Source: a virus
Taxonomy: Duplodnaviria; Heunggongvirae; Uroviricota; Caudoviricetes
IMG/VR virus record: IMGVR_UViG_2778260996_000020
Location: 1 to 28,407 of that record
Length of the DNA stretch: 28,407 nucleotides
Reading direction: 5' to 3' (one strand)
The translations under genes were made by a program, and so were the position numbers. Positions 9,598 to 20,817 of this stretch are shown one piece after another (within the stretch, counting starts at the first letter, position 1; every line of letters begins with the position of its first letter). The notes beneath the pieces are model-generated. The model did not search any database. It was not told where the DNA came from and was given only the letters and a program-made list of their open reading frames with translations.

Positions 9598-12500
9598 TTA
9601 CCCTAATTTAGCTTCAATTGCAGCAAGACGTTCACGAAGAAGTTTATTTTCTTCGCTCATTTCTTGGACCGCTTTAATTAAAAGCGCGTTCACTGCGGAG
9701 TTTGAAATTGTTAAAATTTCTTCTGGGTTATCAAAACCACCAATTTTTGCGGTTTTAACAGCTTCCGGTAATACCTCTTGTAAATCCTGTGCGATAATAC
9801 CAATCTCATGACCTATAACTTCTCGGTCATTAAGAGATTTAACTTTATCGTAGGTTTTAACTTTGAGTTTATTTACCTTATCCACCGCATTTTCTTCGTA
9901 ATCTTCAACATTAATTTTCAGACGACGATCGGAACGAATATAAACATCGTTAAAGTTTCCGTTACCAGTGGCATGAAATTCTCCACTTGCATGGAATTGA
10001 TAATCAGCACCCTGAACATGAAGAACCGCTGCCGCAGTATTATTACCATCACCCGGACAATGAACGTCCATAGCAGCGATATATTGACGCCCCCAATCAA
10101 CCGCTTTCCAAACAGCATGAGCACTGTCAATACTTTTCTGGCAGTCAACCAACAAACCAGCAGGGCGGTCTCTCCATGCAACATATGCACCACCATCAAC
10201 TTCACCACGGATAAGTCCTTGATCTGCGGCATAAGGAACACGCCCTTCCAGTTTAATCATCGCGCCCTGGAAGTGATGTGTAAATTGTCCACCGTGGTTA
10301 TTGCGAATATGTAAAATACCCTCATCTGTAGCCCAGATAACAGCCTTTTCCGTATCGCTATCATCTCTAAACCAGACGTGGCGAGCACCAGCAGAGTTTT
10401 TGATAGTAATCCCGGAAGGTCCATGCACAGTAAAAGCGCCAGCAACATCAAACATCAAACTGTTATCTGTCCTACGTTCAGTATAGAAGTGATAACCTTT
10501 GGAATCACCGACTTCCATCACTGCCGCGCGACCAACTTCTGAATTTCCCCAATTATTAATAGAGAATCGTTCAGAGCTATTATTCATCTGATTTAGGTAT
10601 AATGTACCATCAGTGAATGTTTCGCCAAAGAATCTGGTTTTAACGCCGTTAGTACCCCCCACGCGTTCAAATTCAGCCAAGAAACCTTTGGAATCTCGCA
10701 TACTCAAAACGTTATTGCGTCCTGTATTACTGTTACCCCAATGGATTAATTCAATATAGTCCATTGACTGACGAGACCCTGATCTAAACACCATATTATC
10801 TTCGATGCGGGTGCTACCATCAATTCCCAGATGTAAACAGCGTGCGGTAGCTGTGCCACCTAGATCTAATCCACCTTCGGCGAAATCATAACTAAATGGT
10901 CTACGAGTATTCCACGTCCCAAAGGAATCTTTTAAATCGGTAGTAAGAATATGGAAGCTAGAACCATCATTACGAAGGATTAAACCATAGTTACCACCTT
11001 TAACAGCCAAACGAGCATTTTCAGATAATGCAACTTCGCTATTCATTACAATTTTCTGGCCTCTACCGCCAGTAATATGTAATTCACCGTCTTCAATCAG
11101 GTTTATAGAGTTTTGACCGTTGTCGTTCCACCAAATAAAATCTTTGGTCTGACCATCACCGAAGCCAAACCAGCCATTACGAACATCTTGTCCAGTGCGA
11201 TAATCCATGAAATTAAAATGACTTGATTCGTTTGGTCCTCGACGAATATCAATACCAGCATTAGAACCGGAACCTAAGCCACCATCGATGGTCAATCTAC
11301 GAATATGCAAACCAGTCCCAGAAGACAACAATAGTTGTTGACCTGAGTCTGTACCTCCAGTGGCAAGACGATAATTCTGGTCATCAACGGTTTCATGCCA
11401 GATTGTCGCGCTGGCAGAGCTTCGAAACCGACGCAACATCTTTTTAGCATTTGTCGGTTGTTCGTTCATATGCTCAATGTCATATTGTCCTTGATGGTTT
11501 CCAGCAAAGTTTAACGTCCCACGGTTGCTAAAGTTATTGAACGATGAAATGTTAAGAGCATCAAAAATTTCGTCTGCAACAGGTTTTTCACCACCCAGAT
11601 ATTCAGGAGTATCCAACAGGTTTAAAGAAACACCACCGGAAGAAACTTGATATTCTGCTAAAACAAATCCTGTATGTGCACCGTAGTAAGCGTAAAGATC
11701 GTAATTGTCGCCATCGGTTGGAATAGCGCAAAAATGTTGTTCATAATGCCAAATAGTATAATACGCATTGAATACAACACCTTTCGGGCTATTGTTGCCG
11801 CATCGAATCACCAATTCGATAATATTGGCTTGTCCATTATGTCCTACGTTATAACCGTTACCACCAACCAAACGGATCTTAGCCGTGCGACCGTGTTGTT
11901 GTGGCATTGTCAAAGTGCCTAGTTTAAACCAACCACCCTCGATACCAAAATTAAGCGTCTTCTGGAACAGTCGGTCAATTTCTGCTTTCGAATATGCGCC
12001 AATTTCAGCCGGAGTAGGTTTATCGCCTTCATGATACATGCGGTGAGAATATGACAAATTACCTAATTCATCATAGCCGTATGTTCTTACAGTAGCATGT
12101 GGATTAGACCCATAAGTGAACTCGAAGCCACGAGCATGATTAACACCAGATGGATGCGGAACATGCAAGATCATTGCAATATGACCCGCCAGGTCATTCA
12201 TGCGGAATGCACCAAAGTAATCAAGATTACGCGCATTTGGATCATCAAAATAGTTTGCGGTCTTAGACAGCAAATAACCATCAGTATAAGTGTTTACGTG
12301 TTTTTTGATGTACTTGCCATCAGCAGATCCATCGGCTGCATCAATACGGCTTTCTAAACGTGCCAGTTCAGAATCAGTGTAAGACTTGTTATTGTCAACT
12401 TTGCTATGAATTGCTGTATTTTTGGCTTCAACATCACGGGTTAATGCTGCGACGTTATCCGCTGCCTCTTGCTTATTGGCTGCAATCACACCAGTAAGGT

Positions 12501-12963
12501 TATTGTAGGTGTCAGTTAACTGATTTTCCGCATAGACTTTATTTGCTGCGATAGTGCGGTCAGTTTCTGCCTTAATCAAATCAACCTTGTCATTGATTGC
12601 TTTGTCATTGCTTGCGATGGTTGCATCGGTGCGGGATTTAATATCATCAACTTTATTGTTAATTTCTGCGTGATTTGCTGCGATGGTTGCATCAGTAGTT
12701 TGTTTAATTTCATCTACTTTAGCGTGAATATTGCGGTCATTTACTGCAATTGTGCTATCTAGTTCTTGTTTGTTAGCATCAACTTTAGATTCTAGTGCCG
12801 CGTGAGTTTCAGGAGAAACAGAGATTTGAACTACTTCATGATCTCGGTCTTTGGTAAAAATAACATGGTCTTTAAGGTTGATTGCTACCTCACCGACCTG
12901 TAATTGTTCCGGCGTTGGTTTTTTGCCAGAAACATTAGTTCGTTTAAATTGGATTGATTGCAT
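9598..12963 (-). CDS. Tail/neck fiber protein with C-terminal intramolecular chaperone (peptidase S74-type) domain, 1121 aa
   Basis: C-terminal ~120 aa carry the Ser-Lys autoproteolysis motif SDRRLK followed by IGHEIGIIAQDLQEVLPEAV and a terminal coiled coil, typical of endosialidase / L-shaped-fiber chaperone domains. N-terminal ~150 aa of degenerate coiled-coil repeats (VDxIKxxTDATIAAN). Gly-rich central region. GAGGTGA SD. Confidence 0.8.
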   Translation of the reverse strand: MQSIQFKRTNVSGKKPTPEQLQVGEVAINLKDHVIFTKDRDHEVVQISVSPETHAALESKVDANKQELDSTIAVNDRNIHAKVDEIKQTTDATIAANHAEINNKVDDIKSRTDATIASNDKAINDKVDLIKAETDRTIAANKVYAENQLTDTYNNLTGVIAANKQEAADNVAALTRDVEAKNTAIHSKVDNNKSYTDSELARLESRIDAADGSADGKYIKKHVNTYTDGYLLSKTANYFDDPNARNLDYFGAFRMNDLAGHIAMILHVPHPSGVNHARGFEFTYGSNPHATVRTYGYDELGNLSYSHRMYHEGDKPTPAEIGAYSKAEIDRLFQKTLNFGIEGGWFKLGTLTMPQQHGRTAKIRLVGGNGYNVGHNGQANIIELVIRCGNNSPKGVVFNAYYTIWHYEQHFCAIPTDGDNYDLYAYYGAHTGFVLAEYQVSSGGVSLNLLDTPEYLGGEKPVADEIFDALNISSFNNFSNRGTLNFAGNHQGQYDIEHMNEQPTNAKKMLRRFRSSASATIWHETVDDQNYRLATGGTDSGQQLLLSSGTGLHIRRLTIDGGLGSGSNAGIDIRRGPNESSHFNFMDYRTGQDVRNGWFGFGDGQTKDFIWWNDNGQNSINLIEDGELHITGGRGQKIVMNSEVALSENARLAVKGGNYGLILRNDGSSFHILTTDLKDSFGTWNTRRPFSYDFAEGGLDLGGTATARCLHLGIDGSTRIEDNMVFRSGSRQSMDYIELIHWGNSNTGRNNVLSMRDSKGFLAEFERVGGTNGVKTRFFGETFTDGTLYLNQMNNSSERFSINNWGNSEVGRAAVMEVGDSKGYHFYTERRTDNSLMFDVAGAFTVHGPSGITIKNSAGARHVWFRDDSDTEKAVIWATDEGILHIRNNHGGQFTHHFQGAMIKLEGRVPYAADQGLIRGEVDGGAYVAWRDRPAGLLVDCQKSIDSAHAVWKAVDWGRQYIAAMDVHCPGDGNNTAAAVLHVQGADYQFHASGEFHATGNGNFNDVYIRSDRRLKINVEDYEENAVDKVNKLKVKTYDKVKSLNDREVIGHEIGIIAQDLQEVLPEAVKTAKIGGFDNPEEILTISNSAVNALLIKAVQEMSEENKLLRERLAAIEAKLG

Positions 12964-13034: not shown

Positions 13035-13868
13035 TCAGTATTCCCCGAAATCGATCCGGTCATGGATAGAAACGGCTTCAATCTCGGCTGGTGTCGGTTT
13101 TTCTTCTGTGGAATACAATTTCACCCATCCAGAATTACCGTCTTTCTGGACTGTGCGAACTCGTAAACGTGGTGCGCCGGAAGCGGTGCAAGTTAATTGC
13201 CATCCACCATCTTCATTAGGTTGAACGTGAATTAGTGAAGTATCAGCACTAAATGGGTTAGATGCGCTCGATCCCTGATAGGTTACGAAACGGTTTCCGG
13301 CTAATGCTTCGCTATCAATCGGACCTGTGAATGGGCTAATTCCCGCGCCAACACCATACATACCTTGCCGTAAAATAGCCCCCTCGGTCGCTATACCCCT
13401 TGCAAGAATCCCGCCATCTGGTTCAAGTTTAAATTCCAGTGTTACAGCTTTGTTATCACTACCACGGGTTTTGTGACTAGTGACATAAGCGTCATAGATG
13501 ACATAGTAACCAGTGTTAGCAGCACTATAGCCAGAGTTCACAACATAGAACATTCGGAAGCGTAAAGGTGTTTTATCCTCTACCGCTTTCATCAACATGT
13601 CTTGATGTTCGTCATCCAGAACACGGTTTACTACTAACGTAGTTGATTCAAGTTTACGATAACCAGCAAGTTTCCCCGTAGCGTCCTGATCATACTCTTC
13701 TAACGTCTGGATCTCTGTAGATTCGGTTATCGTCGGGAATGCTGCGATGTTCTCGATAGGACTAAATGCAGGATCGAAAAAGTCCGGCTGGTTATCCACC
13801 ATAGTAGACACGGAGACTTCAACATGCGACCCCGTGAAAATGTCTAAGTTATCTTGTGTAATATTCAT
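13035..13868 (-). CDS. Hypothetical virion structural protein, 277 aa (possible fiber-associated / neck protein)
   Basis: Lies in the head-to-tail junction region. C-terminal KPTPAEIEAVS motif recurs in the adjacent fiber protein (DKPTPAEIGAYS; N-terminal KKPTPEQLQVGE). Confidence 0.45.
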   Translation of the reverse strand: MNITQDNLDIFTGSHVEVSVSTMVDNQPDFFDPAFSPIENIAAFPTITESTEIQTLEEYDQDATGKLAGYRKLESTTLVVNRVLDDEHQDMLMKAVEDKTPLRFRMFYVVNSGYSAANTGYYVIYDAYVTSHKTRGSDNKAVTLEFKLEPDGGILARGIATEGAILRQGMYGVGAGISPFTGPIDSEALAGNRFVTYQGSSASNPFSADTSLIHVQPNEDGGWQLTCTASGAPRLRVRTVQKDGNSGWVKLYSTEEKPTPAEIEAVSIHDRIDFGEY

Positions 13869-13877
13869 TATTACCCC

Positions 13878-14300
13878 TTAAAAACGCGCTACATAAGAAA
13901 ATTTAAGGCTAAGTGTCCCAACGATACCCCCATCACTAGAATCATCGTCATAATCGGTATTAGAAGCTACTGGAGTGATATCTGAAATAGAGAAGCCCAA
14001 ATCTTTAAATCGTGGGTTATCCGGCTGAATCTGGATTATCTGGCAAATACCCTCATGAATTTTGGTTTCATGATTCTGAGAATACAACTGCATTTCGATA
14101 ACGCATTCAGCTTGCATTGCATTACCACCACGAACACGCGTATAAGTCTCATTCATTCCAGTAATCCAACAAACCACGTCATCACTAAAGCCTTGCTGAG
14201 TTTGTTCTACGTTTAAAGCCAGACCTAAATCTTGTTCGATAATATCCTGCAAGGCGCGTTTGATTTTCAGTCTAGGCATATTATTAACGGTAGCGAGCAT
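13878..14300 (-). CDS. Hypothetical head-tail connector/completion protein, ~141 aa
   Basis: Track ORF 13878-14381 trimmed to the ATG at 14300 (AGGGGG SD), which removes most of the overlap with the upstream ORF. Position between capsid and tail genes. Confidence 0.4.
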   Translation of the reverse strand: MLATVNNMPRLKIKRALQDIIEQDLGLALNVEQTQQGFSDDVVCWITGMNETYTRVRGGNAMQAECVIEMQLYSQNHETKIHEGICQIIQIQPDNPRFKDLGFSISDITPVASNTDYDDDSSDGGIVGTLSLKFSYVARF

Positions 14301-14574
14301 GTGTACCCCCTGCACGAGCAATAAAGCAATCAGAAGTATTATCACCATTGCGCTTAACGTATTGAACTTTGAAGCGTTCACCGTCTACAATGACAACATC
14401 ACCCTGATTTAAGTTTCCCTCACGACAAAATAGAAATTCTGATTCTGTAATTACCCCCTGTTCGTCGGTAGTAGTAATTTCATGGTAAGCACGAATTGAT
14501 TTACCACCTTCCACCGAAAATACAGGAGCACTTTTAAACATTCTTGATAATTGTGATTCTGATAATTTGAACAT
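14284..14574 (-). CDS. Hypothetical head-tail connector protein, 96 aa
   Basis: First ORF after the capsid gene terminator. AAGGGGG SD. Function by position only. Confidence 0.4.
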   Translation of the reverse strand: MFKLSESQLSRMFKSAPVFSVEGGKSIRAYHEITTTDEQGVITESEFLFCREGNLNQGDVVIVDGERFKVQYVKRNGDNTSDCFIARAGGTHARYR

Positions 14575-14603: not shown

Positions 14604-14631
14604 CAAAAAAGCCCCACCGTTAGGCAGGGCT
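14604..14631 (-). terminator. Intrinsic terminator downstream of capsid gene
   Basis: Minus-strand RNA: AGCCCUGCC-UAAC-GGUGGGGCU hairpin (9 bp with two G-U pairs) followed by UUUUUUG. Confidence 0.65.
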
Positions 14632-14768: not shown

Positions 14769-16772
14769 TCATTCAGAGATATGAAGAACTTTCAGAGCTT
14801 CCGGCTGGGTTACAACGTAATCCAGATCTACCCAGATACGCGGAACAATTGCGGACTGTGCACGGTAGGTGGTGTCGTCCATATCCAGTTCCAGACCGCC
14901 CCACTCACCGATAGTAATACCGGAGAAGTCACCCAGAACGATGTGGTCTGCCGGAATAACACCAGAAGTAACTACTTCGTAACCAGCCAGTTTGCCGTTT
15001 TCGATGATATAACCGGAAACGCCGTTATCTTTCAGGGTAGATTCCAGTTCAGCAGCAGTTGCACCGCTCATTGCAAACTTGATGGACTGTGCCGGAACGC
15101 CAGCGTCGGTCAGTTTAGCAATTTCTTTCAGGAAGTCTTTGTAGGTGAAAGCAGCTTTCTTCTCAACGCGGCTAGCGTCTACCAGTTGTTTAACCAGACC
15201 AGCCGGACCACGATCGTTAGCTTTATCAGACAGAATCAGTTGTTCCAGTTTGATACGAACAGCCTGGTTGATGTGATCAGTGATCAGGGTAGCGATACCC
15301 GGAACGGTTTTAATGCTCTGACGGCTGATCGGGTTGCCACCAGCAAAAGTCTTAGGAGACAGTTTCACGTTTGCAAATTCAGCTTTGCCTTCCGGTGCAG
15401 CACCGTTTTCATCAACGAAGCCGAAAGCGTCAACGCTGGATTTAGTCATTTTTGGAATAGCGGTCGGAGCAGTCAAGCCACTGTAAACAGTCACACCCAG
15501 ACGACCCAGAACGGATTCCGGCATCAGCATTTCGATGTAGGATTCAGTCATCAGTTTTTCATCGGTGATAGCAGTCAGGTCAGCTTTGGTGTTACCAGCA
15601 GCAGCAGCACGCATAGCAGCAGCCGGAACGAATACAGAGCCACCACGAGCAGCACGACCACGCTGCATAGTTGCAGTAGCAGCCATCGCAGAAAACTCGG
15701 CTTCGTGAGCACCCAGAGCTTCACCATCTACCAGAGAGCGAATTACGTTGTTCAGGTCAAAAGTTTTTTCCATTTTAGAGTCCTTAATTTGTTGTTCGTT
15801 ATTACGTTGAGCATTGACGAGATTATTTAGTGCCTTAGTGCGGAATGCTTCCGGCGTCATATCTTTAACTGCCAATGCGCGTTCTAATTCTTCGTCGTTA
15901 ATATTTAGTTCGCGAGCTATCTCGCGAATTTCTAATTCGTCTTCTTCGGAACGTTCAGCCACTTCCTCGATTTTTTCTTCTTCAACCGGAGCGGCTTCAC
16001 GTTCTTCTTTTACTTCTTCTGCTTCCCGAACAGTTGAACTATCATCATCAACACTTTCAGGATGTTCAGCGTCTTTTCCGTCTTCGAGATTTTCATCTTC
16101 TTTATTCTCTTCAACTTGGCGCTCTTGAGTTTCTTCTACTTCCGGTTCTTTAATTTCTTCTACCGGAGTTTCTTCAACCTGAGCGGGTTCTTGTTCTTCT
16201 TTGATTTCTTCGATTTGTTCTTTAGTCATATCGCGTTTAGCCTCCAAATTAACTGTGATAGTATTTAGAGAGCGATTTAAACCGACCGTATCGTCAGCAG
16301 GAACGGTAACGAAACTTAATTCGTATGGTGCCCACTTAGTAACAATTAATTGCCCTTTGGCGTAATCGATGTGATATTCTTTAATGTCATAACCGACAGA
16401 AATTTTTTCCATCGTACCTTCAATGACTTTATTGCGAATATCATTAGCCAAAGTCCCATGCTTGGAGAATTTAACCAGAGCACGACCTACGTTATCCGCA
16501 TCGATTCGAGCGTTACAAACAACACCAATGTGATTATCGAAATTATGATTGAACAGCAACGGAGCGTTATTATTCAGACGAGACAGATCAACCGCTTCCG
16601 GTGTATGTACCAGAATTTCATCTAATACCACCATTTCTTGATTTTGCTCATCCCAAAATTGGCGCTGATAAGGCTGTGTACTTGAGAAAGCAATTTCAAA
16701 TTCGTATTGATCGTTATGCCCTTCGTTAATAACTCCACCGTAACCGTTAAGATCGCGGCGAAATTTAAGCAT
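14769..16772 (-). CDS. Fused prohead protease (HK97 S78-like) - acidic scaffold-like linker - HK97-fold major capsid protein, 667 aa
   Basis: N-terminal ~170 aa resemble a prohead protease domain. Central ~130 aa are extremely Glu-rich and coiled-coil-like. C-terminal ~330 aa resemble an HK97-type major capsid protein. AAAGGTGA SD. Directly downstream of portal. Confidence 0.75.
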   Translation of the reverse strand: MLKFRRDLNGYGGVINEGHNDQYEFEIAFSSTQPYQRQFWDEQNQEMVVLDEILVHTPEAVDLSRLNNNAPLLFNHNFDNHIGVVCNARIDADNVGRALVKFSKHGTLANDIRNKVIEGTMEKISVGYDIKEYHIDYAKGQLIVTKWAPYELSFVTVPADDTVGLNRSLNTITVNLEAKRDMTKEQIEEIKEEQEPAQVEETPVEEIKEPEVEETQERQVEENKEDENLEDGKDAEHPESVDDDSSTVREAEEVKEEREAAPVEEEKIEEVAERSEEDELEIREIARELNINDEELERALAVKDMTPEAFRTKALNNLVNAQRNNEQQIKDSKMEKTFDLNNVIRSLVDGEALGAHEAEFSAMAATATMQRGRAARGGSVFVPAAAMRAAAAGNTKADLTAITDEKLMTESYIEMLMPESVLGRLGVTVYSGLTAPTAIPKMTKSSVDAFGFVDENGAAPEGKAEFANVKLSPKTFAGGNPISRQSIKTVPGIATLITDHINQAVRIKLEQLILSDKANDRGPAGLVKQLVDASRVEKKAAFTYKDFLKEIAKLTDAGVPAQSIKFAMSGATAAELESTLKDNGVSGYIIENGKLAGYEVVTSGVIPADHIVLGDFSGITIGEWGGLELDMDDTTYRAQSAIVPRIWVDLDYVVTQPEALKVLHISE

Positions 16773-16817
16773 TTAATCACCTTTAATTAATTGGGGGCAT
16801 TGCGCCCCCGTTGGTTA

Positions 16818-18329
16818 TTAGGGATCGGCTGGGGAATTTTTTTCTTCACCCTCGCCATTAACGATAATATTTAGTGCGCTCTTTTCGGCTTGAATCTCTG
16901 AGAATACTTTTTCAGGATCATCACCACGTTCTAATATAACGGCAGTACGTGATTTAAGTCCTTTATCAATTAAAGCAATCTCGGCGTTTACGTCTTTAAT
17001 AGGATCGACGGATTCAAAACGCGGACGAATAATAGTAGTGTTGTCGATAATATGCGGAATTGCAGTAATACGAATCGGAACAATACCACGCGCGGAATAA
17101 TGGCGTAGATATGCTTCGAAAATTGGCAATACCACTGTTTCAATTAATTTGTTTTGCAGTGCTTTAATGCGGTTACGCTGAGTTAATTCACCAAAACGTG
17201 CGGCTGAGTAGTTGATCTGTGAACAATCTCCTGTTAAGCCCTGTTTAAACACGCCAAGACCCATCGCTATATGGGTGAACATGCCATCGTTGAAGCTGAT
17301 AAAGTCATCACCGTTTTGCGTCGCCTGAATACTCTTGATCGTTGCCCCTTCCGGCAATTCCTGAATAGTACCAGGTGCAAAATCCTGTACTACTTCCGGC
17401 GCTTGATATTGTTCATCCTCTTCACCAGTATCAAAATCGTCACCAGAATCTTTCGGACGTTCAATAAAGCCCATAGAGCTAGCTGCAATACGTTTCTGGA
17501 TGATCGCGGTTTCGCGGAACGCTTCTTGATGAGCAATATCCTTAATCACTGGCAGGAAGTCAGTCACACCACGTAAACTTTCCGCGCACAGTGGCTGGTA
17601 GTAGTGGCACACCTGAGAAGCATCTACGCGATAATTTTCGCCAGTGTAGGTCTGAGTCAGTAGATTGATTTTTCTAAACCAGTATGCTACAGGGCGCATT
17701 GTTTCTACGTCATACTCAATCCCTTGAAAGATCGCGCGGTCTTTGCTTATTTCACGACTAAGCGACCAGTCGCACCTATCAGCAGACAGAATAGAAACTT
17801 GTAACTCGTTGTTTTCTTTGGTTAAAACGATGAAGCATTCTCCACCCTGAACACGTTCAGATTCTGCCATTGCCAGCATTTCACGGAAGTTAAAGCGACC
17901 GTTGCGAGAGAAGCGTTTAGCACTCTGCGCCCACTTCCAGAAAGCATTCTCGATCTGCTTATTCAGTGCGGTGTCAAGTTTGCCATTTGATTTAACGATT
18001 GATGGTTTCGGATCAAGCCCCGTACCAACAACTTGGTCAACGATATACTGCTTGTATCGCTTGCCTACAGCATTGTTTATAGCCAGAGTACGACCCTGAT
18101 CATAAAGGCGCTTACCGTTCGATTTGAGAGCCTTATTGAAGGTTCCGGTAATGGTGTCTTGTTGAAGCTGTCCATCAATGCGATCACCGACCAAGCCCAA
18201 AGAACGCTTAGACAAATCTTTCTGGAATTTTTCTACTTGTTTGTCGATAAAGATTTTTTGTTGTTGCTGGCGGTGATTAGTTTTAACTGGAGTTTCTACC
18301 GCCTTTTTGCGTCGAAAAAGATTAAACAT
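16818..18329 (-). CDS. Portal protein (lambda gpB family), 503 aa
   Basis: Position after terminase. Motif HIAMGLGVFKQGLTG...YSAARF resembles the conserved lambda-family portal core (IAAGLGV...YSTAR). Confidence 0.75.
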   Translation of the reverse strand: MFNLFRRKKAVETPVKTNHRQQQQKIFIDKQVEKFQKDLSKRSLGLVGDRIDGQLQQDTITGTFNKALKSNGKRLYDQGRTLAINNAVGKRYKQYIVDQVVGTGLDPKPSIVKSNGKLDTALNKQIENAFWKWAQSAKRFSRNGRFNFREMLAMAESERVQGGECFIVLTKENNELQVSILSADRCDWSLSREISKDRAIFQGIEYDVETMRPVAYWFRKINLLTQTYTGENYRVDASQVCHYYQPLCAESLRGVTDFLPVIKDIAHQEAFRETAIIQKRIAASSMGFIERPKDSGDDFDTGEEDEQYQAPEVVQDFAPGTIQELPEGATIKSIQATQNGDDFISFNDGMFTHIAMGLGVFKQGLTGDCSQINYSAARFGELTQRNRIKALQNKLIETVVLPIFEAYLRHYSARGIVPIRITAIPHIIDNTTIIRPRFESVDPIKDVNAEIALIDKGLKSRTAVILERGDDPEKVFSEIQAEKSALNIIVNGEGEEKNSPADP

Positions 18330-18339
18330 GATTTACCCC

Positions 18340-18837
18340 TTATCGCGTAAGACGTACTTTAATATTTTTAATCGGGCTAATTCCCTGTTTACGTCGTTCG
18401 GCTTGAATTAATTTTGATAACTGACGTTCATAATCGACTTTTAGAGTCTGGAGAACAGCCAATGACTCATAGGCGAAAGTATTCCCTTTCACTGTCATTG
18501 CTGATAATGCGGCTTCGTCCCCAAATAAACGGGCGAAAATAACTTGCTCGATTAAGTCGATAGTTTCCCGCAGATATTCTTTTTTGGATTGTTTGGCGAA
18601 TACTGGCAAAACAGTTAATTCTTGCATCGATACCAGTTCTTCATCAAGAGTAATAACAATGGTCATCTTCCCTTCTGGAAAGTCTAACGTTTTAATCTCG
18701 TGATTAGCCGGAGAATCATCAACCTGATAGATGATACCTTTATTATTATTTCCTACCTGAATTGTTACACCCTCTTCATTCGCCAGCGTGATTTTTTCGC
18801 CTTTACGAATTACTAAGGGAATTAGTTCTAAACTCAT
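18340..18837 (-). CDS. Hypothetical protein between terminase and portal, 165 aa
   Basis: ORF in the position occupied by gpW-type head completion genes in lambda-like phages. No recognisable motif. Confidence 0.45.
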   Translation of the reverse strand: MSLELIPLVIRKGEKITLANEEGVTIQVGNNNKGIIYQVDDSPANHEIKTLDFPEGKMTIVITLDEELVSMQELTVLPVFAKQSKKEYLRETIDLIEQVIFARLFGDEAALSAMTVKGNTFAYESLAVLQTLKVDYERQLSKLIQAERRKQGISPIKNIKVRLTR

Positions 18838-18909: not shown

Positions 18910-20817
18910 TTAGAACGATGTTACCCAGCTACGGCCTCTATTTGGGCGTCTGGCGATGTTTTGACGTTGCGGTCGTGTGATTGGCTTAGTTTCTTCGATT
19001 TGCTCGTTAGATTGCGATTTAGGAGCTTCTACGGATTCTTCAACAACACGGTTTAAGCTGTCTTTCATTGCAATGAGTTTATCCCATGACATTTTTGAAA
19101 GGACGTAGCGAGAAGCCGCATAGCTATAAACCAGACAGTCGAGAGCCTCGTTTCGGGTACTACCTGGATTTTTCACCCAACGCACGCCAGTAGTAGTACG
19201 CTTGATGGATTCACTCAAAAGCTGATCGAGATAATCATCAGGAACGGTTTCTGATATTTCTAAGCCAATATGAGGATTATCTTTCAGGTTTCTAACCAGC
19301 ATTTCACGAACAGCGGATTTGCCAACGTTAACACCCAACATAAGCAATTCATGACCACCTGTGCGGGTAGGTTTAACCGGAATCACTGGAGCATTACCAG
19401 ATGAACTACCTTTGATCGCGTGTAGGTTCTTCCACTTGCCGCAAATACGGTATCCGGCTTGAGTGAATCGACCGTTCGATGTATCAAGGAAGCTGGCGAG
19501 CATAGGAACACGTTCACCCTTAACGTTATAGAATTTGGTTTTCTTGAAGTTAACCAGACGATCCCAAACAGGTGATTCATATCGTTCACAGTTATGATCG
19601 TAAAAGCTGCGGTGATCCAGAATGTAAACCTTATCTTTCGCTACACCTAAGATGGTAGATTCTGCGCGGTCCAATTGCTGGTCAATTCCTGAACACAAGA
19701 AAATAACGTCATCAGGAATATTCTCGATAGAAACATCTGTTTTGAGTTGTTCCAGTTCATTTGCTTCTACTGCCGTGTCCTGATCGTCGTACACCTTACC
19801 TAATACGGTGTTAAAAAATGATTGTAAATCAAAGGATTGCCACGCATGACTAAAATCAACCACACAAGCGCGGATCGTGCTGAAAGGTGAATACAGACGG
19901 CTGATCCAGAATCCTGCTACCTCACTTTCGCGGGTTGCTCTCCACTCGCCTTGCGCTACTGCCCTGATTCGTTCCCCTTCTGTCCATGCGTTCTTACAGT
20001 GGGGGCAAATATAACGAGCGGTATCAGGATCGGGTAAGTTCTTACCATCGATGTTACGCCATTCAAATTGAACGTTTTCCCACTCGATCACCTGGTGTTC
20101 CCCGCAATGCGGACACGGAACAAAAAACATACGCATATCGCTTGATAACCATTGCTGGTTAATGCTTCCGAGCTTACTGGTCGGGGTACTGGATACGACT
20201 AATCGGCCTTCATCGCCAAAGGTAGTTAAACGGTTAGCAGCCAGTGCCACCGGATCACCTTCTTCTGAGGCTGTAGCAGCATCGATTTCGTCTAGTAGTC
20301 CGACCTTTGCAGTCTTACCGCGCAGGGTTGATGGACTGGTAAGCGATACCATGTACAGGAAGTGATTCGTTTTTAGCTGGAGTTGGTTATTGTTGTTAAC
20401 CGCATTGCGATCATTCTTGTCTGTAACCACGTCTTTTAATGCATCACATGCTTCGATAGACGGTCGGATCTTACCAGCGAGATATTGAGACATTTCTTTA
20501 GCGGTTGATTGTCCGATAATCATATTGCATGGATCGTTAGCCATCTGGTTAAACAGGATGCCATTCAGGATGGTAGTCTTTCCGATCTGCGCACTGGTCA
20601 TCAGAACATACTTTTTCTTGTTCTCAAGGAAAGGAGCATCAATCATACCTTTCTGGAATGACAGCAATTTAACTTTATCCCCAGCTTGAGGACCATCTAC
20701 CAGCACCATATTAGCTTCGCACCATTCCGATGGAAGGAGTTTAGGCGGTGGCGTAATATATTTGGCTGCATTTCTGAGAATCTTTTTTAATTTGGCCTTA
20801 TTAGAAATTAGTTTCAT
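18910..20817 (-). CDS. terL: Terminase large subunit (GpA-like), 635 aa
   Basis: Walker A-like SAQIGKTT and Walker B-like VGLLDEID in the N-terminal ATPase half. Cys-x2-Cys pairs (CPHCGEHQ...CPHCKNAW). Acidic nuclease-like C-terminal half. GAGGGT SD. Confidence 0.85.

Follow-up and report, generated by a model that had tools for sequence, protein, structure and literature searches.

A protease, putative scaffold and capsid fusion gene with candidate internal starts in a lambda-like prophage of Escherichia coli and Shigella

The fusion gene and its domains

The stretch of DNA described here (the window) comprises the 28,407 nucleotides (nt) of the IMG/VR virus record IMGVR_UViG_2778260996_000020, a member of the Caudoviricetes. 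The gene under study is a complete open reading frame (ORF) that encodes a single chain of 667 amino acids (aa), in which a prohead protease (aa 21-165), an acidic spacer (aa 170-271), an all-helical domain (aa 272-393) and an HK97-fold capsid protein (about aa 389-667) follow one another in frame. The coordinates of these and of the neighbouring features are collected in Table 1. The annotated ATG is preceded by the Shine-Dalgarno (SD)-like sequence AAGGTGAT, which is complementary to the 3' end of 16S rRNA. A first-pass annotation, made from the sequence alone, had read this ORF as one gene for a protease, an acidic low-complexity linker and the major capsid protein, and the intact 667-aa frame together with matches to both domain profiles bears it out; the acidic stretch that it quoted lies at about aa 186-215, and residues 181-300 are 43% Asp+Glu with a net charge of -38. 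The architecture that it proposed is supported, yet it is already known: fusions of protease, scaffold and capsid protein have PHROG and NCBIfam families of their own and an approved SEA-PHAGES name.

An exact copy is present in NCBI and UniRef from E. coli, and the best 120 listed database clusters (95-100% identity, from E. coli and Shigella) are 665-669 aa long throughout, with M1, H76, S125, E151, M182, M334 and R388 invariant in all of them. By megablast with 8 kb around the gene, 55 of 5426 complete E. coli genomes proved to carry the locus, in each case in the chromosome, and the PGAP annotation in these genomes is one coding sequence (CDS) named 'phage major capsid protein'.

The protease domain belongs to the Peptidase_S78 / HK97 gp4 family. 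The profile PF04586 (Peptidase_S78) matched aa 40-162 at 41.4 bits, its gathering score being 21, and TIGR01543 reached 35 bits, under its equivalog cut-off of 59, the match being at the level of the family and not of the equivalog. His76 was aligned to H65 of HK97 gp4 by hhalign and Ser125 to S114 by BLASTP. Both residues are invariant in sets of 40 and 149 diverse sequences and, along with Glu151, are unchanged across representatives at 24-45% identity. The predicted model of the domain gave a confident structural match to the assemblin / T4 gp21-like fold.

The spacer is predicted to be disordered and is the least conserved part of the chain. Its length and sequence vary across the family, and in distant homologs it is not alignable, the tblastn matches breaking into two pieces. 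The following domain is predicted to consist of helices at aa 276-288, 293-301, 307-337, 340-349, 355-370 and 384-391, and contains the sole conserved motifs of the middle region, E..R..EI...A....AI..G.S...F and RG-FF-VP-x-DV-x-R. From its position and conservation this domain is proposed to be the scaffold, or the equivalent of the HK97 delta domain.

The capsid part matched PF05065 (Phage_capsid) with 89.6 bits against a cut-off of 24.2 (aa 410-664), and the model comprises a low-confidence hinge at aa 394-408, visible as a dip in per-residue model confidence (pLDDT), followed by the HK97 fold at aa 409-667. Among known structures it was related to the capsid protein of roseophage R4C (8GTA), with a phmmer E-value of 3.5e-24, a Foldseek E-value of 2.9e-18 and a template modelling (TM) score of 0.71 to the target; the Foldseek matches also include the capsids of HK97 (1ohg), D3 and gene transfer agents. 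Against HK97 gp5 the hhalign probability was 96%. Covalent cross-linking of the HK97 type is unlikely here, because the chainmail residues are not conserved in this remote alignment, which is indicative only (A459 stands in the place of K169, Ser in that of N356 and Trp in that of E363).

Maturation cleavage is predicted between Arg388 and Ala389. The motif RG-(F/I/L)(F/Y)(V/I)-P-x-(D/E)-(V/I)-x-R closes with a near-invariant Arg, R388, found in 144 of the 149 representatives. Next comes an arm rich in Thr, Ser, Ala and Gly, and after it 'LVxT.....SFIDxLR'. A span of 15 residues is common to HK97 gp5 (Leu115-Arg130) and to the family (L402-R417); counted back from this Leu, the distance is 12 residues to the P1 residue of HK97, Lys103, and 13-14 to R388. 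In the cryo-EM structure of Lactococcus phage Nocturne116 residue 243 of the fusion is the first of the mature capsid protein, pointing to a cut between Arg242 and Ser243 (PMC13595954). Arg388-Ala389 is therefore preferred on account of the near-invariant Arg, the register of the HK97 K103-S104 junction and the Arg-Ser junction of Nocturne116, and is the best prediction. The mature protein would then comprise 279 aa (29.6 kDa); that of HK97 has 282 aa. Cleavage at K396-A397, suggested by the 8GTA alignment and the pLDDT dip, is a less favoured alternative in view of the near-invariant R388. The R4C paper makes no statement on the processing of its 268-aa capsid chain.

The family is large and mostly keeps the fused layout. 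An exhaustive phmmer search of 1.84 billion protein representatives gave 6704 matches, 455 of them at E<=1e-30, so that the architecture is common to at least 455 sequence clusters. Of the best 150 representatives, 148 have lengths of 540-780 aa (nearly all 560-760 aa), and in almost every one both halves of the protein are matched. PHROG 617 ('major head protein') was matched over its full length (E 1.7e-91, aa 23-663 on profile positions 26-621 of 626), and phrog_4523, named 'major head and protease protein', was also matched. The NCBIfam model NF045541 (scaf_prot_MCP2, prohead protease/major capsid protein fusion protein) gave 131.5 bits against a cut-off of 525, limited to the N-terminal half (model positions 5-282 of 634); the protein is not a member of that family and represents the same architecture in another lineage. 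Weak matches to DUF2316 and ULD (Pfam) and to QhpR and Ig-blocking (NCBIfam) were under their cut-offs and were disregarded.

The gene has no close cultured relative, as a megablast search of 50,697 phage records with it gave no match. The best tblastn match, at 46% identity, was 'Escherichia phage DCP80' (PQ671644.1), a 141-kb record classed as a T4-like Gaprivervirus. A siphovirus-type module syntenic with the window makes up the first ~23 kb of it; beyond this, within positions 1-52000, come the T4-like genes motA and ndd and an inverted pair of rIIA copies. With its chimeric or misassembled look, the record was not relied on as a characterised phage. Upstream of the protease domain, the frame stays open for another 150-290 aa in many relatives of marine or metagenomic origin, with stop-to-stop ORFs of up to 1044 aa and proteins of 740-893 aa, which suggests either an extra N-terminal domain before the protease or a frame running out of the upstream gene.

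Table 1. Features of the fusion gene and its surroundings in the window
Feature	Position (nt)	Strand	Description	Basis
Complete ORF	14769..16772	minus	667 aa, 73.7 kDa, pI 4.6	ATG start (16770-16772), TGA stop (14769-14771)
SD-like sequence of the annotated start	16776..16783	minus	AAGGTGAT, 5' of the ATG	read from sequence
Prohead serine protease domain	16278..16712	minus	aa 21-165, Peptidase_S78 / HK97 gp4 family	profile match, catalytic residues
Invariant protease residues	16545-16547; 16398-16400; 16320-16322	minus	His76; Ser125; Glu151	
Candidate internal start 1	16227..16245	minus	GGAGG (16241-16245), 11 nt, ATG of Met182 (16227-16229)	protease/spacer boundary
Acidic low-complexity spacer	15960..16265	minus	aa 170-271, predicted disordered	composition, pLDDT <50
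All-helical conserved domain	15594..15959	minus	aa 272-393	pLDDT 77-95, conserved motifs
Candidate internal start 2	15771..15785	minus	AAGGA (15781-15785), 7 nt, ATG of Met334 (15771-15773)	
Predicted maturation cleavage	15606..15611	minus	Arg388-Ala389 (alternative Lys396-Ala397)	conservation, HK97 register, Nocturne116 precedent
Predicted mature HK97-fold major capsid protein	14772..15608	minus	aa 389-667, 279 aa, 29.6 kDa	profile and fold matches
GpA-type large terminase	18910-20817		upstream	
gpW-like head-tail joining protein	18340-18837		upstream	
Lambda-family portal protein	16818..18329	minus	upstream neighbour	
G+C-rich hairpin	16792..16810	not assigned	in the 45-nt gap between portal gene and fusion gene	
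Intrinsic-terminator-like hairpin and T-run	14610..14631	minus	138 nt past the stop codon	
gpFII-like ORF	14284-14574	minus	96 aa	weak match
ORF without family match	13878-14381	minus	167 aa	
PHROG 158 match	13035-13868	minus	277 aa	'major tail protein'
T4-like long-tail-fibre protein	9598-12963	minus	1121 aa	Gp34_trimer and Peptidase_S74 domains
PHROG 158 match	8128-8598	minus	156 aa	'major tail protein'

Candidate internal translation starts

Two in-frame ATG codons within the gene are preceded by SD-like motifs and are candidate starts of shorter products. The one at Met182 would yield a 486-aa, 53.1-kDa product comprising spacer, helical domain and capsid protein, and the one at Met334 a product of 334 aa and 35.4 kDa, of which 55 aa would form the propeptide. 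Along with the full chain, the predicted products with a common C-terminus would be of 73.7, 53.1 and 35.4 kDa.

For the first site, Met residues were counted in 149 diverse representatives at positions relative to a conserved anchor, Arg167, from which Met182 is at +15; a column-wise test for a conserved Met had failed in the 149-sequence alignment, where the linker columns were unalignable, and the anchor-relative offsets were used instead. The density of Met is 4.1% at +11 to +25 and 1.3% in the next 25 residues, and a Met at +6 to +30 was identified in 103 of the 149, against 51-73 in control windows of equal width. At the DNA level the set comprised 82 loci (the window, DCP80 and 80 IMG/VR contigs), of which 64 contain an ATG at the boundary between protease and spacer. 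Pairing with the anti-SD sequence of -5 kcal/mol or lower is reached by 62% of these 64 ATGs, compared with 47% of the genes' own called starts, 16% of 1127 other internal Mets and 14% of all codons (Mann-Whitney p=2e-12). The best combination of SD and ATG of the whole ORF falls inside the 25-codon boundary window in 9 of 31 clusters (<50% identity), where about 5% would be expected (p=1.7e-5), and in the window gene the boundary combination ranks first in its ORF. Around the boundary ATG the mRNA is more open than across the gene on average (z=+1.23, 20 of 21 clusters), and more open than in the linker that follows (z=0.34 for the linker, p=7e-4).

The same site was submitted to a recoding test, in which the peptide was kept fixed and the six upstream codons were resampled by each gene's own codon usage. 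The real SD pairing beats most recodings, with a median percentile of 0.17 (0.05 for the window), and 57% of the sites lie under 0.2, against 19% of control Mets (p=8e-4). The GGAGG motif of the window gene is built with GAG, a minor codon used for 9 of its 79 Glu residues.

The second site is restricted to the window's clade, where it is nearly complete. A Met just 5' of the conserved '..AIRS..GD' helix was identified in the 17 loci of this clade (30-92% identity), and AAGGA lies 7-13 nt before it in 16 of them, the remaining locus having GGTGAT. The peptide that joins the motif to the Met is not conserved, while AAGGA persists. AAG is a minor Lys codon in the window gene (17%), and among the 12 Lys codons that precede Asp or Glu the only AAG is the one at this site. 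Of 12 lineages put through the recoding test, 92% are under 0.2 (p=2e-6), with the window at 0.045. Five loci without the boundary Met retain this second site. In distant clades a peak of Met at -20 from G350 was considered as a start and rejected, being a structural residue of an 'IG-M/L-T/S' motif without an SD.

Proposed assembly pathway and rival explanations

Nested genes for protease and scaffold that share a C-terminus through an internal start are known in lambda (C/Nu3) and Mu (I/Z). Protease/scaffold isoforms of the herpesvirus type have been described in OsHV-1 (PMC11565193). The feature by which such nested co-terminal genes are recognised in sequence, an in-frame internal ATG with its own SD and conserved in relatives, is present here, and suggests that starts at Met182 and Met334 would give protease-free, co-C-terminal forms beside the full chain. 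No report of internal starts in such fusions was found in the searchable literature, a search outside of which most subscription literature lies; papers on Sp5, DLP3 and XM1 were irrelevant to the question.

The proposed pathway starts from the observed domain identities, catalytic residues, folds, ORF intactness and breadth of the family, and takes its assembly and maturation steps from HK97 and Nocturne116. In this pathway the capsid domains at the C-terminus would polymerise on the portal into a procapsid whose interior holds the protease, the spacer and the helical domain; the last of these presumably works like the HK97 delta domain. The high local concentration would switch on the protease (His76/Ser125) after assembly; it would then cut after Arg388 and degrade the internal parts, the fragments of which would exit. 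DNA would be packaged, and the 279-aa mature protein would expand into the shell. Initiation at Met182 and Met334 probably supplies protease-free subunits of 53 and 35 kDa, leaving the protease on a minority of subunits.

Two rivals deny the gene as such or its protease. HK97 gp4 and gp5 are adjacent separate genes only 2 nt apart, and a frameshift or lost stop in sequencing or assembly could have joined a protease gene to a scaffold-capsid gene; yet the identical protein occurs on 7 contigs, more than 100 near-identical variants keep 665-669 aa, the locus is one CDS in 55 complete genomes and the fused layout is common to hundreds of distant homologs. A frameshift fusion of two genes, which the first-pass annotation had named as a finding that would overturn its reading, is excluded because the same protein length and a single CDS recur across independent assemblies, and the chance of any such artefact is negligible. 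It is also very improbable that the N-terminal domain is a dead protease fold that contributes scaffold mass only, with maturation left to a host or other phage protease or not taking place. This would agree with the modest Pfam and TIGR01543 scores, but His76, Ser125 and Glu151 stay invariant at 24-45% identity and align to the catalytic residues of HK97 gp4, and the fold is confidently that of gp21/assemblin. No further protease or scaffold gene was matched in the head module, and the RefSeq annotation of one relative agrees on the lack of a separate one.

The rival with most to recommend it concerns the number of products. The gene might make a single 74-kDa product, with a protease on every subunit, the internal Met codons and SD motifs being relics of formerly separate genes or by-products of Lys/Glu-rich coding. 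Published accounts of such fusions assume one product, and the silence of the searchable literature on internal starts is in keeping with them. However, relics would be expected to decay at 25-40% identity, and the SD+ATG combination is instead enriched; it beats synonymous recodings, uses minor codons and lies in locally unstructured mRNA, and the AAGGA before the equivalent of Met334 stays while the encoded peptide changes. By a rough estimate, a T=7 procapsid built of the fusion only would contain ~415 proteases and ~18 MDa of internal protein (415 copies x 388 aa), which is about double the amount of scaffold in T=7 phages that have been studied well and is compatible with the presence of protease-free subunits. 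A gene limited to the fusion poses a stoichiometry puzzle, and internal initiation at the conserved start signals would resolve it simply. The single-product explanation is possible, but on this evidence it is somewhat doubtful.

Several observations weigh against the proposed pathway with its internal starts. Between roughly a quarter and a third of family members lack the boundary Met, the spacing of 11 nt from GGAGG to ATG182 is longer than optimal, the A-rich coding sequence of the linker accounts for part of the low mRNA structure, and the loci are not fully independent phylogenetically even after de-replication at 50%. The helical domain gave no specific match to a known scaffold in the fold searches of the model, and many copies of the prophage may be defective, as insertion sequences (IS) are present in the tail region of some carriers.

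With these points included, the gene very probably serves head assembly in a lambda-like siphovirus prophage that is common among E. coli and Shigella strains, belongs to a large known class of fusions and acts through the pathway described, with internal starts as a probable step. The stronger proposal of a three-in-one nested gene, in which the 53- and 35-kDa forms would be abundant, the protease would be carried by a minority of the capsid subunits and the arrangement may be widespread among such fusions, deserves about as much belief as doubt. If true, it would be the counterpart in a bacterial virus of herpesvirus UL26/UL26.5, extended into the capsid gene itself, and gene callers and annotators would have to treat such fusion genes as multi-product loci. 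The fusion as such has little discovery value, being catalogued and having a cryo-EM-supported precedent; its use is in annotation, where the RefSeq name 'phage major capsid protein' hides the protease.

Neighbouring genes and comparison with known systems

The head module comprises, in order, the GpA-type terminase, the gpW-like protein, the portal, the fusion gene and the gpFII-like protein, followed by tail genes. The fusion gene fills the slot that C, Nu3, D and E hold in lambda. It is flanked by two hairpins, which may set the level or stability of the capsid mRNA, and the HK97 annotation contains putative terminators at the equivalent places (in the gap between portal and protease, and after gp5). 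As listed, the gpFII-like and 167-aa ORFs overlap by 98 nt. The GTG start of the latter is probably placed too far upstream, RefSeq beginning it later in a relative, as a 423-nt CDS. No decoration-protein gene was recognised.

The order of the following genes is unusual, since the long-tail-fibre gene, whose product ends in a C-terminal Peptidase_S74 intramolecular chaperone, is placed amid head-tail connector and tail-tube genes. It is flanked by the two ORFs that match PHROG 158, one of which is possibly a tail-tube paralog. In E. coli 14EC017 (NZ_CP024134.1) the locus sits in a related prophage adjoining hicAB/yncJ, where IS1A and IS421 are inserted in the tail region (4730-5427 and 13129-14241); in strain UTME-12 an IS1B lies under the match region.

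Among the named systems, HK97 shares with the window protein the protease family with its aligned catalytic His and Ser, the capsid fold, a helical scaffold-like domain fused to the capsid protein, a basic P1 residue in the same register before the N-arm, and hairpins flanking the gene or genes. It differs in that its protease is encoded separately, by a gene that ends 2 nt before gp5 and has its own C-terminal targeting tail, whereas here the protease is in frame with the capsid protein and an extra acidic disordered spacer of ~100 aa is present.

A likeness in domain order and, by prediction, in the junction is seen in ORF18 of the c2-like phage Nocturne116, where protease, scaffolding domain and major capsid protein form one ORF cut after an Arg (PMC13595954). 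Its precursor part is much shorter, with 242 aa against ~388 aa here; the head is prolate and has isopeptide bonds and a separate protein at the vertex, and the host is Gram-positive. The fusions described in many actinobacteriophage clusters have the identical domain order, with different hosts and low sequence identity (PMC7302621; bioRxiv 10.1101/2020.01.10.891226). Gp5 of Pseudomonas phage MD8, a lambdoid temperate phage, is a triple fusion of similar size (690 aa) formed by a ClpP-type protease, a scaffold and the major capsid protein (PMC8508860); its ClpP/S14-type protease has an unrelated fold, and therefore that fusion arose independently.

The pairs C/Nu3 of lambda, I/Z of Mu and UL26/UL26.5 of herpesviruses share with the window gene an in-frame internal start and an abundant protease-free form with the same C-terminus as a rarer protease-bearing form, all of which is prediction here, and the herpesvirus pair resembles it also in the assemblin fold of the protease domain. 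In all three the capsid protein is encoded by a separate gene, whereas in the window the shared C-terminus would be the capsid protein itself.

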